NCBI RefSeq assembly: GCF_003334255.1
Contig: NZ_QOWU01000038.1
From: Escherichia coli
GTDB lineage: Bacteria > Pseudomonadota > Gammaproteobacteria > Enterobacterales > Enterobacteriaceae
Direction: 5' to 3' (one strand)
DNA length: 49,700 nt
The stretch's first letter is position 1. The number at the start of each line of letters is the position of its first letter. The notes under the pieces were generated by a model that was not told where the DNA came from, searched no databases, and was given only the letters and a program-made list of their open reading frames with translations. This document shows, piece after piece, positions 1 through 49,700 of the stretch. The position numbers and the translations under genes were made by a program.

Positions 1-2
1 AG

Positions 3-368
3 CTGATAGAAACAGAAGCCACTGGAGCACCTCAAAAACACCATCATACACTAAATCAGTAAGTTGGCAGCATCACCCTAGTTGCCAAACAATTAGTGCA
101 GGCCTGCCAACCTACAGAAGAATCATTAATGCCGATTGTGAGCCGCCTTGATGCAGAAAATCGTTGTCCACTGGAAGCATTAATTATTCGTCGATTATTA
201 ATTCAGGCGGCGAATTTTACCGAGAAGCAAACTGTTGAACCGGAGCCGCAACCGCAGCCAATGCCCGTTGACGATGGTGGGCCAGGCTGTCTGGGCATCA
301 TTAAAATTATTTTCTATATTTTTATCTTTGCTGGTTTGATAGGAAAAATACTCCATCTGTTCGGGTGA
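3..368 (+). pseudogene. djlB: 3' region of a DjlB-like J-protein paralog, with an in-frame TAA at 60-62; downstream frame 96-368 encodes a DjlC-like C-terminus with a hydrophobic tail
   Basis: Frame-3 translation 63-368 (..[64 protein letters not shown]) parallels the DjlC C-terminus encoded at 1738-3189 (..[55 protein letters not shown]). The same frame is open from nt 3 but hits TAA at 60-62; the track ORF starts at GTG 96. Confidence 0.5.
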
Positions 369-8202: not shown

Positions 8203-8242
8203 CTCCAGAAAAAAGAGGGTAGCAGCGTTAACTGCTACCCTC
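8203..8242 (-). terminator. Intrinsic terminator/attenuator hairpin between gltI and gltJ
   Basis: Perfect 11-bp stem gagggtagcag/ctgctaccctc (8215-8225 / 8232-8242), loop cgttaa, followed on the minus strand by TTTTTT (8214-8209) that runs directly into the gltJ ribosome-binding site. Confidence 0.7.
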
Positions 8243-8370
8243 GAAGATTGTTACCCAGCGTATTGCGGTTTTCAGGCCCGATGGGGAACGACCATCAGGC
8301 GTATAGTCTGTCCGTGCTACGTAACAATCGAGAGGGCTGGAATTTCCGCCCCTGGTTCTTGTAATTAGTT
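8209..8370 (-). ncRNA. sroC: gltI 3'UTR-derived small RNA (SroC-like)
   Basis: Positional: the gltI-gltJ spacer ending at the hairpin terminator is where SroC is described in E. coli; the 5' end is not determinable from sequence alone. Confidence 0.45.
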
Positions 8371-13857: not shown

Positions 13858-15282
13858 TTACGGCTGATAATAACCCACGCCAAGGTCGTTTTCTTTGCGG
13901 GTACGGGCAATCACTGATTCCGGTGTTTCTGCCACGCGCAGACCCATTTCATCTTCAGTACGCACCACTTTACCGCGCAGAGAGTTCGGGTAGACGTCGG
14001 TAATTTCTACATCGACGAATTTACCGATCATATCCGGCGTGCCTTCGAAGTTGACCACGCGGTTATTTTCCGTACGCCCGGAAAGCTCCATGATGCTCTT
14101 ACGCGATGTACCTTCTACCAGAATACGCTGGGTGGTGCCGAGCATCCGGCGGCTCCACGCCATCGCTTGCTGATTAATGCGCTCTTGCAGAATATACAGA
14201 CGCTGCTTCTTCTCTTCTTCCGGAACATCATCAACCATATCGGCGGCTGGTGTACCCGGACGTGCAGAGAAGATAAAGCTGTAGCTCATGTCGAAATTGA
14301 CGTCGGCAATCAGCTTCATCGTTTTCTCGAAGTCTTCGGTGGTTTCGCCAGGGAAGCCAACGATGAAATCAGAACTGATCTGAATATCTGGACGCGCCGC
14401 ACGCAGTTTACGGATGATCGCTTTGTACTCCAGCGCCGTATGGGTACGGCCCATCAGGTTCAGAATGCGATCGGAACCGCTCTGTACCGGCAGATGCAGG
14501 AAGCTCACCAGCTCCGGCGTGTCGCGATACACTTCGATGATATCGTCGGTGAATTCGATCGGATGGCTGGTGGTAAAGCGAATACGATCGATCCCGTCGA
14601 TCGCAGTAACCAGACGCAGCAGATCGGCAAACGATCCGGTGGTGCCGTCGTAGTTTTCACCACGCCAGGCGTTCACGTTCTGACCGAGCAGGTTGACTTC
14701 ACGCACGCCCTGAGCCGCAAGCTGGGCAATCTCAAACAGAATATCGTCGGACGGACGGCTTACCTCTTCACCACGGGTGTAAGGCACCACGCAGTAGGTG
14801 CAATATTTATTGCAGCCTTCCATGATGGAGACAAACGCGGTCGGCCCTTCGGCGCGCGGTTCCGGTAGACGGTCAAACTTCTCGATTTCCGGGAAGCTGA
14901 TATCTACAACCGGGCTGCGGTCGCCACGCACGGAGTTGATCATCTCCGGCAGACGGTGCAGCGTTTGCGGCCCAAAAATAATATCGACATAGTGGGCGCG
15001 CTGGCGAATGTGCTCGCCTTCTTGCGATGCCACGCAGCCACCGACGCCGATAATCAGGTCTGGATTCTTCTCTTTTAACAGTTTCCAGCGACCCAACTGA
15101 TGGAAGACTTTTTCCTGAGCCTTCTCGCGGATTGAGCAGGTGTTCAGCAGCAGCACATCCGCTTCTTCCGCCACGTCGGTCAGTTGATAGCCGTGGGTGG
15201 CATCCAGCAGATCGGCCATCTTCGATGAATCGTACTCGTTCATCTGACAGCCCCAGGTTTTAATATGGAGTTTTTTGGTCAT
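13858..15282 (-). CDS. miaB: tRNA-i6A37 methylthiotransferase (radical SAM)
   Basis: 474 aa; N-terminal MTTase cysteines, radical-SAM CxxxCxxC (CNKYCTYC), C-terminal TRAM domain. Confidence 0.9.
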
Positions 15283-15427
15283 CGACTTGCTCTTGCGAAA
15301 TAGTAGCCAGGAATGCAGGGCGCATAGTGTAATGCTTTGCTGCCGTTGTGACCAGTATGAGCGTTATCAGCCCTTAGGGGTAAAAATCCTGTAAACTTAA
15401 AGCATATTGCTAACAGGATGATTGACC

Positions 15428-16603
15428 ATGACAAATCAACCAACGGAAATTGCCATTGTCGGCGGAGGAATGGTCGGCGGCGCACTGGCGCTGGGGCTGG
15501 CACAGCACGGATTTGCGGTAACGGTGATCGAGCACGCAGAACCAGCGCCGTTTGTCGCTGATAGCCAACCGGACGTGCGGATCTCGGCGATCAGCGCGGC
15601 TTCGGTATCATTGCTTAAAGGGTTAGGGGTCTGGGATGCAGTACAGGCTATGCGTTGCCATCCTTACCGCAGACTGGAAACGTGGGAGTGGGAAACGGCG
15701 CATGTGGTGTTTGACGCCGCTGAACTTAAGCTACCGCTGCTTGGCTATATGGTGGAAAACACTGTCCTGCAACAGGCGTTGTGGCAGGCGCTGGAAGCGC
15801 ATCCGAAAGTAACGTTACGTGTGCCAGGCTCGCTGATTGCGCTGCATCGCCATGATGATCTTCAGGAGCTGGAGCTGAAAGGCGGTGAAGTGATTCGCGC
15901 GAAGCTGGTGATTGGTGCCGACGGCGCAAATTCGCAGGTGCGGCAGATGGCGGGAATTGGCGTTCATGCATGGCAGTATGCGCAGTCGTGCATGTTGATT
16001 AGCGTCCAGTGCGAGAACGATCCCGGCGACAGCACCTGGCAGCAATTTACTCCGGACGGACCGCGTGCGTTTCTGCCGTTGTTTGATAACTGGGCATCGC
16101 TGGTGTGGTATGACTCTCCGGCGCGTATTCGCCAGTTGCAGAATATGAATATGGCACAGCTCCAGGCGGAAATCGCGAAGCATTTCCCGTCGCGTCTGGG
16201 TTACGTTACACCGCTTGCCGCTGGTGCGTTTCCGCTGACGCGTCGCCATGCGTTGCAGTACGTGCAGCCAGGGCTTGCGCTGGTGGGCGATGCCGCGCAT
16301 ACCATCCATCCGCTGGCGGGGCAGGGAGTGAATCTTGGTTATCGTGATGTCGATGCCCTGATTGATGTTCTGGTCAACGCCCGCAGCTACGGCGAAGCGT
16401 GGGCCAGTTATCCTGTCCTCAAGCGTTACCAGATGCGGCGCATGGCGGATAACTTCATTATGCAAAGCGGTATGGATCTGTTTTATGCCGGATTCAGCAA
16501 TAATCTGCCACCACTGCGTTTTATGCGTAATCTCGGGTTAATGGCGGCGGAGCGTGCTGGCGTGTTGAAACGTCAGGCGCTGAAATATGCGTTAGGGTTG
16601 TAG
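15428..16603 (+). CDS. ubiF: FAD-dependent ubiquinone biosynthesis hydroxylase
   Basis: FAD-binding GxGxxG (IVGGGMVGG); start taken at ATG 15428 (the track start 15422 is a TTG two codons upstream). Confidence 0.85.
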   Translation: MTNQPTEIAIVGGGMVGGALALGLAQHGFAVTVIEHAEPAPFVADSQPDVRISAISAASVSLLKGLGVWDAVQAMRCHPYRRLETWEWETAHVVFDAAELKLPLLGYMVENTVLQQALWQALEAHPKVTLRVPGSLIALHRHDDLQELELKGGEVIRAKLVIGADGANSQVRQMAGIGVHAWQYAQSCMLISVQCENDPGDSTWQQFTPDGPRAFLPLFDNWASLVWYDSPARIRQLQNMNMAQLQAEIAKHFPSRLGYVTPLAAGAFPLTRRHALQYVQPGLALVGDAAHTIHPLAGQGVNLGYRDVDALIDVLVNARSYGEAWASYPVLKRYQMRRMADNFIMQSGMDLFYAGFSNNLPPLRFMRNLGLMAAERAGVLKRQALKYALGL

Positions 16604-16609
16604 CCTTAC

Positions 16610-16720
16610 AACATTGCCGGATGCGTGCCAACCGTAGGTCGGATAAGACGCGGCAGCGTCGCATCCGACATTGAAGGATAAGACGTGTCAACATCGCATT
16701 CGACATTGAATGAACGCAGA
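16610..16720. repeat. REP-like palindromic units with an imperfect tandem ~35-bp repeat
   Basis: ggataagacgcggcagcgtcgcatccgacattgaa followed by ggataagacgtgtcaacatcgcattcgacattgaa; preceded by tgccggatgcg. Confidence 0.6.
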
Positions 16721-16723
16721 AAA

Positions 16724-16752
16724 GCAAAAAGCTCGCCGAAGCGAGCTTTTTT
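16724..16752. terminator. Bidirectional intrinsic terminator (ubiF on +, tRNA operon on -)
   Basis: aaaaa-gctcgc-cgaa-gcgagc-tttttt: 6-bp GC stem flanked by an A-run and a T-run. Confidence 0.75.
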
Positions 16753-16756
16753 AATG

Positions 16757-16831
16757 TGGCTGGGGTACGAGGATTCGAACCTCGGAATGCCGGAATCAGA
16801 ATCCGGTGCCTTACCGCTTGGCGATACCCCA
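16757..16831 (-). tRNA. glnV: tRNA-Gln (anticodon CUG)
   Basis: Minus-strand 75 nt: TGGGGTATCGCCAAGCGGTAAGGCACCGGATTCTGATTCCGGCATTCCGAGGTTCGAATCCTCGTACCCCAGCCA; anticodon loop TTCTGAT, encoded CCA end. glnV and glnX are identical so the symbol is nominal. Confidence 0.9.
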
Positions 16832-16878
16832 ACAAATTGGTTTTGAATTTGCCGAACATATTCGACACATTCAGAATT

Positions 16879-16955
16879 TGGTGGCTACGACGGGATTCGA
16901 ACCTGTGACCCCATCATTATGAGTGATGTGCTCTAACCAACTGAGCTACGTAGCC
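16879..16955 (-). tRNA. metT: Elongator tRNA-Met (anticodon CAU)
   Basis: Minus-strand 77 nt: GGCTACGTAGCTCAGTTGGTTAGAGCACATCACTCATAATGATGGGGTCACAGGTTCGAATCCCGTCGTAGCCACCA. Confidence 0.9.
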
Positions 16956-16984
16956 ATCTTTTTTTTCGCGATACCTTATCGGCG

Positions 16985-17026
16985 TTGCGGGGCGCATTAT
17001 GCGTATAGAGCCTTGCAGCGTCAACC
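16985..17026 (-). promoter_or_regulatory. Putative sigma70 promoter of the tRNA operon with GC-rich discriminator
   Basis: Minus strand: TTGACG (17024-17019), 16-bp spacer, CATAAT (17002-16997), then GC-rich GCGCCCCGCAACGCC typical of stringently controlled stable-RNA promoters, about 35 nt before the tRNA-Met 5' end. Confidence 0.5.
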
Positions 17027-17298
17027 TCTTTTTCAAGGAAAATTGCTCGAAAGTGACTGTTTGGTTAGGTTGCGAACAGCGTGGCGCTATATTCGTCAAT
17101 TATTGTTTACTTTGTGTTTTTTCCCACCCTACAGCCATTCTTTTGTCATACAGGATGAAATTCGGAATTTAACAATAGTGGTGGGAAATTAATCTATGAA
17201 ATACTGGCCTACAGTGATGAGTTGTCAAACAGTGATGTGGCAAACCCGGAACATTTCCTTACTGCATATCAGAATCAACAAGCACCTCAATAACTGAA

Positions 17299-17330
17299 AC
17301 AGCCCCGGATTTCACCAGGGCTGTTTCGCA
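17299..17330. terminator. Hairpin after asnB
   Basis: cagccc-cggatttcacca-gggctg followed by ttt; lies directly after the asnB stop. Confidence 0.5.
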
Positions 17331-17334
17331 TTTC

Positions 17335-18999
17335 TTACTTATACGCCGACTGGTGAACACCAACCGCGCGACCAGACGGATCGTCCATTTTCTTGAACGC
17401 TTCATCCCATTCGATCGCTTTAGCGGAAGAACAAGCGACGGAAGGACCGCCCGGCACGCACTCAGCGGCGCTCGGAAGCGGGAATAGTTCTTCAAAGATC
17501 TCCCGATACAAGTACGCTTCTTTAGAGGTTGGCGTGTTGTACGGGAAGCGGAAGCGGGCAGTTTCCAGTTGCTGATCAGAAACCTGCTGCGCAGCCACTT
17601 CTTTCAGGGTGTCGATCCAACTGTAACCGACGCCATCGGAGAACTGCTCTTTCTGCCGCCAGGCCACGCTTGCAGGCAGATACGCTTCAAAACATTCACG
17701 CAGGATGTGTTTTTCCATTTTGCCGTTACCGCACATTTTATCCTGTGGGTTAATACGCATCGCCACATCAAGGAATTTTTTGTCGAGGAACGGAACGCGT
17801 GCTTCCACGCCCCAGGCTGACATCGCTTTGTTGGCACGCGCGCAGTCATACATATGCAGGGCCAGCAGTTTACGCACCGTCTCTTCATGCAGTTCTTTGG
17901 CATTCGGTGCTTTGTGGAAGTAAAGATAACCGCCGAACACTTCATCAGAACCTTCACCGGACAGCACCATTTTAATGCCCATCGCCTTGATCTTACGCGA
18001 CATTAAATACATCGGTGTTGAAGCGCGAATAGTGGTCACATCATAAGTTTCGATGTGGTAAATCACGTCGCGGATGGCATCCAGACCTTCCTGTACAGTG
18101 AAGTGAATTTCGTGATGCACCGTGCCCAGATGGTTTGCCACTTCCTGGGCTGCTTTCAGATCCGGTGAACCCGGCAGACCTACAGCAAAGGAGTGTAACT
18201 GCGGCCACCAGGCTTCAGAGCGTTCCTGATCTTCCACGCGACGGGCTGCGTATTTCTTGGTGATAGCGGAAATAATTGAGGAATCCAGACCACCAGAAAG
18301 CAGCACACCGTAAGGCACATCAGACATCAGATGGCTTTTAACTGAATCTTCCAGTGCCTGACGCAGCTCGTTTTTGTCGGTCACGTTATCTTTCACCGCA
18401 TCGTAGTCGAACCAGTCGCGATGATAGTAAGAACGGATTTCGCCGTCCTGGCTCCACAAATAGCTCCCCGCCGGGAACTCTTTAATCGTGCGGCAAACTG
18501 GCACCAGCGCTTTCATTTCTGAGGCCACATACAGCTGACCGTGTTCGTCATACCCCATATACAGTGGGATGATCCCCAGATGGTCGCGACCAATCAGGTA
18601 GGCATCTTTTTCGCTGTCGTACAGTGCAAAGGCAAACATGCCCTGCAAGTCGTCGAGAAATTCCGGCCCTTTTTCCTGATACAGCGCGAGGATCACTTCA
18701 CAGTCAGACCCGGTCTGGAACTGGTAACGATCGCCATATTCGGCGCGCAATGCCTGGTGGTTGTAGATTTCACCGTTTACCGCCAGTACGTGGGTTTTTT
18801 GTTGGTTGTAGAGAGGTTGCGCCCCCGCGTTAACGTCAACAATTGACAGACGTTCGTGGGCGAGAATGGCGTTATCGCTGGCATAAATACCGGACCAGTC
18901 CGGGCCACGATGACGCATCAGGCGTGACAGCTCGAGGGCTTTCTTACGCAGCTCAACTGCGTCTGTTTTGATATCGAATACGCCAAAAATTGAACACAT
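17335..18999 (-). CDS. asnB: Asparagine synthetase B (glutamine-hydrolysing)
   Basis: N-terminal MCSIFGV (Ntn amidotransferase catalytic Cys2), SGGLDSS PP-loop; start refined to ATG 18999 (554 aa) with GGAGAAGG upstream. Confidence 0.9.
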   Translation of the reverse strand: MCSIFGVFDIKTDAVELRKKALELSRLMRHRGPDWSGIYASDNAILAHERLSIVDVNAGAQPLYNQQKTHVLAVNGEIYNHQALRAEYGDRYQFQTGSDCEVILALYQEKGPEFLDDLQGMFAFALYDSEKDAYLIGRDHLGIIPLYMGYDEHGQLYVASEMKALVPVCRTIKEFPAGSYLWSQDGEIRSYYHRDWFDYDAVKDNVTDKNELRQALEDSVKSHLMSDVPYGVLLSGGLDSSIISAITKKYAARRVEDQERSEAWWPQLHSFAVGLPGSPDLKAAQEVANHLGTVHHEIHFTVQEGLDAIRDVIYHIETYDVTTIRASTPMYLMSRKIKAMGIKMVLSGEGSDEVFGGYLYFHKAPNAKELHEETVRKLLALHMYDCARANKAMSAWGVEARVPFLDKKFLDVAMRINPQDKMCGNGKMEKHILRECFEAYLPASVAWRQKEQFSDGVGYSWIDTLKEVAAQQVSDQQLETARFRFPYNTPTSKEAYLYREIFEELFPLPSAAECVPGGPSVACSSAKAIEWDEAFKKMDDPSGRAVGVHQSAYK

Positions 19000-19244: not shown

Positions 19245-19390
19245 ATGCCGGATGCGGCGTGAACGCCTTATCCGGCCTACAAAAGCATGAAAATTCAATA
19301 TATTGCAGGAGCTGCGTAGGCCTGATAAGCGTAGCGCATCAGGCAGTTTGGCGTTTGTCATCAGAGCCAACCACGTCCGCAGACGTGGTT
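19245..19390. repeat. BIME/REP cluster and hairpin between asnB upstream region and nagD
   Basis: catgccggatgcggcgtgaacgccttatccggcctac and gtaggcctgataagcgtagcgcatcaggc, plus hairpin aaccacgtc-cgca-gacgtggtt. Confidence 0.6.
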
Positions 19391-49404: not shown

Positions 49405-49700
49405 ATGAGCGGAAAACCGGCGGCGCGTCAGGGCGACATGACGCAGTATGGCGGTAGCATTGTCCAGGGTTCAGCCGGGGTACGCATCGGTGCCCCCACC
49501 GGCGTGGCCTGTTCGGTGTGCCCCGGCGGGGTGACGTCCGGCCATCCGGTCAATCCGCTGCTCGGTGCAAAGGTCCTTCCCGGTGAAACCGACATCGCCC
49601 TGCCCGGCCCGCTGCCGTTCATTCTCTCCCGCACCTACAGCAGTTACCGGACAAAAACGCCCGCGCCGGTGGGGAGCCTCGGCCCCGGCTGGAAAATGCC
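49405..49700 (+). CDS. rhsC: 5' end of an Rhs-family polymorphic toxin gene (runs off the window)
   Basis: ATG 49405 with AAGGA upstream; product MSGKPAARQGDMTQYGGSIVQGSAGVRIGAPTGVACSVCPGG..LPFILSRTYSSYRTKTPAPVGSLGPGWKM, the conserved Rhs N-terminus; sharp rise in GC content; no stop before the window end. Confidence 0.8.
   Translation, partial: MSGKPAARQGDMTQYGGSIVQGSAGVRIGAPTGVACSVCPGGVTSGHPVNPLLGAKVLPGETDIALPGPLPFILSRTYSSYRTKTPAPVGSLGPGWKM

Follow-up and report, generated by a model that had tools for sequence, protein, structure and literature searches.

The window, by which we mean the whole stretch of Escherichia coli DNA analyzed here (49,700 bases), contains two tRNA genes in all its 49.7 kb according to ARAGORN. 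Both lie on the minus strand between ubiF and asnB and are transcribed towards ubiF. An earlier reading made from the sequence alone had counted exactly two minus-strand tRNA genes at this site, one for Met with anticodon CAU and one for Gln with anticodon CUG, and this count is confirmed by ARAGORN together with the Rfam tRNA model, which supports both genes. The interval is organized as follows:

15428 to 16603, plus strand: ubiF, the left flank of the tRNA locus
16726 to 16751, T-runs on both strands: GC-rich hairpin, terminator of the tRNA operon, shared with ubiF
16757 to 16831, minus strand: tRNA-Gln(CUG), anticodon ctg, called by ARAGORN and Rfam, with the sequence of glnX/glnV
16832 to 16878, minus strand: 47-nt spacer equivalent to that between glnV and metU, assigned by sequence comparison with K-12 and relatives
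16879 to 16955, minus strand: elongator tRNA-Met(CAU), anticodon cat, called by ARAGORN and Rfam, with the sequence of metU/metT
17024 down to 16996, minus strand: metT operon promoter, TTGACG-17-CATAAT, followed by the GC-rich discriminator GCGCCCC
17335 to 18999, minus strand: asnB, the right flank of the tRNA locus

The promoter of stable-RNA type that the sequence-only reading had noted is indeed present upstream of the Met gene, with a GC-rich discriminator, and the region around it is identical to the 5′ flank of metT in K-12. At the opposite end of the pair, the hairpin that had been described as the ubiF terminator exists, but its sole assignment to ubiF does not hold: it has the form of a terminator on either strand and also terminates the tRNA operon (PMC2241853). 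Its sequence is identical to the 3′ flank of glnX in K-12. The spacer between the two tRNA genes carries C at position 16866 in the window and its nearest relatives and T in K-12. Three further observations concern the surroundings of the array. A G-to-A substitution at position 17317 falls in the stem of the asnB terminator hairpin (CAGCCCCGG...CCAGGGCTG), where on the asnB strand it turns a G-C pair into G-U, and it was found in none of the five relatives compared. Rfam also matched two ordinary conserved E. coli sRNAs in the window, namely sroC (8207 to 8369, minus strand, downstream of gltI) and ES036/CssrF (19281 to 19323, plus strand, between asnB and nagD).

The sequence-only reading gave the same interval in K-12 as a seven-gene operon, and this is what a K-12-type chromosome (L002) displays, with glnX, glnV, metU, glnW, glnU, leuW and metT between ubiF and asnB on its plus strand. 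The array is built from identical pairs: glnX equals glnV (75 nt), metU equals metT (77 nt), and glnW equals glnU. Once adjacent identical bases are included, the exact repeats measure 77 nt for glnX/glnV, 78 nt for metU/metT and 77 nt for glnW/glnU. Compared with this E. coli metT operon, the window agrees in position, promoter, terminator and the sequences of its Met and Gln(CUG) genes; its outer flanks are also identical, the tRNA pair being bordered by the glnX 3′ flank and the metT 5′ flank. It differs in that the assembled sequence has one Gln(CUG) gene and one Met gene fewer, and neither of the two Gln(UUG) genes nor the Leu(UAG) gene, so that the full set of seven is not found in it.

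The missing DNA amounts to 112 + 393 = 505 bp, in two pieces that are each bounded by identical genes. From stop codon to stop codon, ubiF and asnB are 731 bp apart in the window and would be 1,236 bp apart with the array intact. The 112-bp piece is the period from glnX to glnV with its 37-nt spacer, and the 393-bp piece is the period from metU to metT, which carries glnW, glnU and leuW and includes the 15-nt metU-glnW spacer AGATTGTTTCTTCGA. When both periods are removed in silico from the array of FDAARGOS_1337 or ML35, the window is reproduced exactly across the locus, with the substitution at 17317 in the asnB terminator as the only mismatch. The earlier proposal that the junctions lie within the identical Met genes and within the identical Gln(CUG) genes is therefore structurally exact.

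Many wild E. coli strains are essentially identical (100.0% as reported) to the window in the 25 kb on the right side of the locus, and the three closest genomes inspected (JP538, FDAARGOS_1337 and ML35) all have seven tRNA genes at this site. Comparison with FDAARGOS_1337 across 49.3 kb shows 19 substitutions and no indels other than the two array gaps. The two-gene layout is thus not a feature shared with the nearest relatives, all of which have seven genes, and contracted layouts are instead scattered across lineages.

The two ends of the window are informative about how this sequence was produced:

1 to 77, minus strand: IS1 terminus, exactly 77 nt, 100% identical to the IS1A and IS1B ends, the reverse complement beginning GGTGATGCTGCCAACTTACTG
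49405 to 49700, plus strand: opening 296 nt of rhsC, with 49624 to 49700 as their final 77 nt

Bases 1 to 77 have no alignment to the relatives, and their reverse complement opens with the IS1 inverted repeat GGTGATGCTGCC. This IS1 end occurs at a median of 10 places per genome, and unique djlB DNA runs from base 78 on. At the right end, rhsC was compared with rhsA and rhsB of K-12 in place of the rhs copies of the source strain, and the last position in the window at which it differs from both is 49623; the window stops at 49700, exactly 77 nt further on, and the next such difference would fall beyond its end. Both ends therefore lie exactly k bases inside repeats, which indicates that a short-read de Bruijn assembler with a largest k of 77 produced the window as a complete contig. 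For reads of about 100 to 150 nt, 77 is the default top k of SPAdes.

Both ends gave rise to further observations. The IS1 interruption of djlB (window 1 to 77 and 78 to 368) is absent from FDAARGOS_1337 and from K-12. Another genome, GCA_964056085.1, also has IS1 in djlB, 21 bp from the junction in the window, and it was considered as a clonal relative and rejected, the offset of 21 bp marking an independent insertion. About 2,000 indexed blocks contain the short 79-aa ORF that remains of djlB, so interruption or fragmentation of this gene is common among E. coli assemblies. At the other end, the rhsC fragment encodes a truncated product of 98 aa, and the identical product is listed for 2,132 indexed blocks of public assemblies, where it occurs in rhsA, rhsC and further rhs contexts. 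Among the matches listed, nine of ten contigs end at the identical rhs base, and we therefore regard this site as a generic break point of short-read assemblies, one whose recurrence at k = 77 puts many artificial 98-aa ‘proteins’ into databases. A 32,788-nt draft contig (JBANXO010000019.1 of GCA_045904415.1) ends at the same rhsC base, and its length would place its start roughly inside the Met gene of the array, assuming that it is collinear with the window. This contig suggests that other assemblies break at the array rather than skip its loops.

Repeats of length k or more are not resolvable in a de Bruijn graph (PMC6868369). The repeats of the array measure 77, 78 and 77 nt, and a k of 77 is therefore unable to resolve it. 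We reconstructed this situation using the seven-gene locus of FDAARGOS_1337 as input. At k = 77 its graph consists of eight unitigs, and the shortest walk from source to sink drops exactly 505 bp; apart from the unrelated SNP at 17317, this walk is the window sequence from 14910 to 18904. The Gln(UUG) and Leu(UAG) genes sit on the loops left out of this walk, which form unitigs of 166-271 nt. Raising k to 79 brings the whole locus together in one unitig.

On these results, the two-gene operon is almost certainly a product of the assembly rather than a biological deletion. The ubiF-asnB interval of the source strain would almost certainly hold the usual array glnX-glnV-metU-glnW-glnU-leuW-metT, transcribed from metT. 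With k = 77, each identical gene pair would be merged into one node, and the DNA between the two copies would become a loop on that node. An assembler following the loop-free path would pass from ubiF through the Gln(CUG) node, the 47-nt spacer and the Met node to asnB, dropping the 112-bp glnX-glnV loop as well as the 393-bp metU-to-metT loop with glnW, glnU and leuW. The loops would be left as small contigs of their own, 166-271 nt long, a size that is often filtered out. The single Gln(CUG) copy in the window would then stand for the glnX/glnV node and the single Met copy for the metU/metT node. We infer from this a SPAdes-like assembler and a source genome that holds the loops, and we attribute the shortfall from seven genes to the assembly, not to the organism.

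This locus resembles known de Bruijn repeat collapse in its bounding repeats of 77-78 nt, in contig ends that lie 77 nt inside repeats and in a loop-free walk that reproduces the window, and we find no measurable difference from it. A genome that truly had two genes would yield the same contig at k = 77, and collapse is here inferred rather than observed. The sequence-only reading had leaned towards collapse over a real deletion, and that preference is now strongly supported by the contig ends at k = 77, the repeat lengths of 77, 78 and 77 nt and the graph walk.

The array that collapsed might not have been the standard one. It could have been a natural variant such as a five-gene form, in which case only the Met loop would have collapsed. 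The five-gene layout, Gln(CUG)-Met-Gln(UUG)-Leu(UAG)-Met, is present in NZ_CP041110.1 and at least seven other complete genomes (at least eight altogether) and retains every tRNA species. One five-gene genome, ECCTRSRTH03, has a 25-kb flank essentially identical to that of the window. We nonetheless think a variant array unlikely: the three nearest relatives examined have seven genes, and the five-gene layouts may themselves be either real copy-number variation or the collapse of two self-loops only. A variant array would in any case be a sub-case of the artifact reading and would leave the verdict unchanged.

A genuine deletion is much harder to reconcile with the data. It would have arisen through recombination of glnX with glnV and of metU with metT, with the loss of 505 bp, and chromosomal, prophage or plasmid copies at another site would supply the tRNAs. 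The junctions are suitably placed for this, since they lie in perfect direct repeats of 77-78 nt that are possible recombination substrates, and five-gene copy-number variants in which every tRNA species is kept occur in several complete genomes. Against this stands the experimental record, in which the metT operon was not deletable without a complementing plasmid in a systematic study (PMC11480407); in a separate study it was likewise deleted only with plasmid support (PMC6265465). The first of these studies lists leuW and glnUW as the sole E. coli genes for the anticodons UAG (Leu) and UUG (Gln) (PMC11480407), in agreement with the statement in the sequence-only reading that this operon is the only source of tRNA-Gln(UUG) and tRNA-Leu(UAG). 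The lost genes are the only decoders of the codons CAA and CUA, and the 37 intact genes of the window use CAA 173 times and CUA 30 times.

A survey of complete genomes points in the same direction. The leuW-glnU-glnW segment is kept in 5,414 of 5,426 complete E. coli genomes, and across the collection the same query matched three places on plasmids, which might be taken as a possible outside source of these tRNAs. The contracted locus appears in 21 records. In a search with a chimeric query, in which stretches specific to leuW and to Gln(UUG) were joined to the contracted locus, Leu(UAG) and Gln(UUG) sequence was absent anywhere on nine chromosome records (MC1061, IAL7250, GF47, NWU_1, 536, AVS0947, IPCEC48, HS13-1 and CEA224S), within the reach of megablast, which would overlook a tRNA copy at another site if its identity were below about 85%. 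A precedent for relocation is thus lacking, with no second leuW- or Gln(UUG)-specific copy on these nine chromosomes. Together with closest relatives that differ by 19 SNPs over 49 kb and all have seven genes, and with contig ends at k = 77 that account for the layout without biology, this makes a genuine deletion very unlikely.

The layout of the window does recur among nominally finished genomes, which could be read as natural recurrence. MC1061 (NZ_CP195014.1, 633539-633737), GF47 and HS13-1, all RefSeq ‘complete’, have the same two genes, and AVS0947 and IPCEC48 have them with an extra insertion. Strain 536 (NC_008253.1, 723221-723532) and IAL7250 have a Met-Gln-Gln layout instead. These anomalous records resemble the window in being contracted at the same locus and in having neither Leu(UAG) nor Gln(UUG) anywhere on the chromosome; they differ from it in belonging to other lineages (95.8-99.9% identity) and in being finished assemblies by name. 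DH10B, a descendant of MC1061 with the same nagD allele, has all seven genes. In CEA224S (NZ_CP166080.1), the whole tRNA block is removed precisely, leaving the junction AATG directly followed by TCTTTTTTTT; there is no tRNA at the locus, and the record therefore has no elongator tRNA-Met. NWU_1 (NZ_CP121294.1, 1193-1347) shows two Met genes 1 nt apart, a layout we interpret as the result of passing the repeat node twice. Both layouts are biologically implausible in ‘complete’ genomes, and we do not find the nine records credible as biology. The recurrence of the two-gene form in five ‘complete’ genomes was accordingly rejected as real biology, because the records lack essential tRNAs, because DH10B has seven genes and because the layouts of CEA224S and NWU_1 are impossible. 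The GF and IPCEC sequencing series contribute noticeably many of the odd layouts, and this excess suggests a pipeline effect.

It is more improbable still that a natural lineage has truly been reduced to Met-Gln(CUG) and survives on Gln(UUG) and Leu(UAG) genes relocated to a different replicon or locus; if this were true, the essential metT array could be dismantled in the wild. An engineered strain with a trimmed chromosomal operon and plasmid-supplied tRNAs, like the Delta7::kan/pT6 constructs, was rejected and has next to no probability: such strains exist (PMC6265465), but neither a resistance cassette nor an FRT scar nor any foreign sequence occurs at the locus, the junctions pass seamlessly through native genes, and the background is wild-type-like with IS1 in djlB and not K-12 KL16.

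With assembly collapse as the preferred explanation, the two-gene layout is biologically immaterial, and the strain almost certainly has a normal operon. The value of the case is as a database-quality warning. Tandem identical tRNA genes of 75-77 nt match the default k of common assemblers and consequently vanish from draft genomes. A simple diagnostic is to ask whether contig ends lie k bases inside known repeats and to compare that k with the length of the tRNA repeat. The defect is shared by nine RefSeq ‘complete’ chromosome records, including those of the UPEC reference strain 536 and of K-12 MC1061, which as deposited contain no decoder of CAA or CUA. The 536 and MC1061 records are probably collapsed arrays that have been propagated into tRNA gene catalogs. 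Surveys of tRNA gene content, codon-anticodon adaptation and tRNA essentiality that accept such assemblies uncritically would report false losses.
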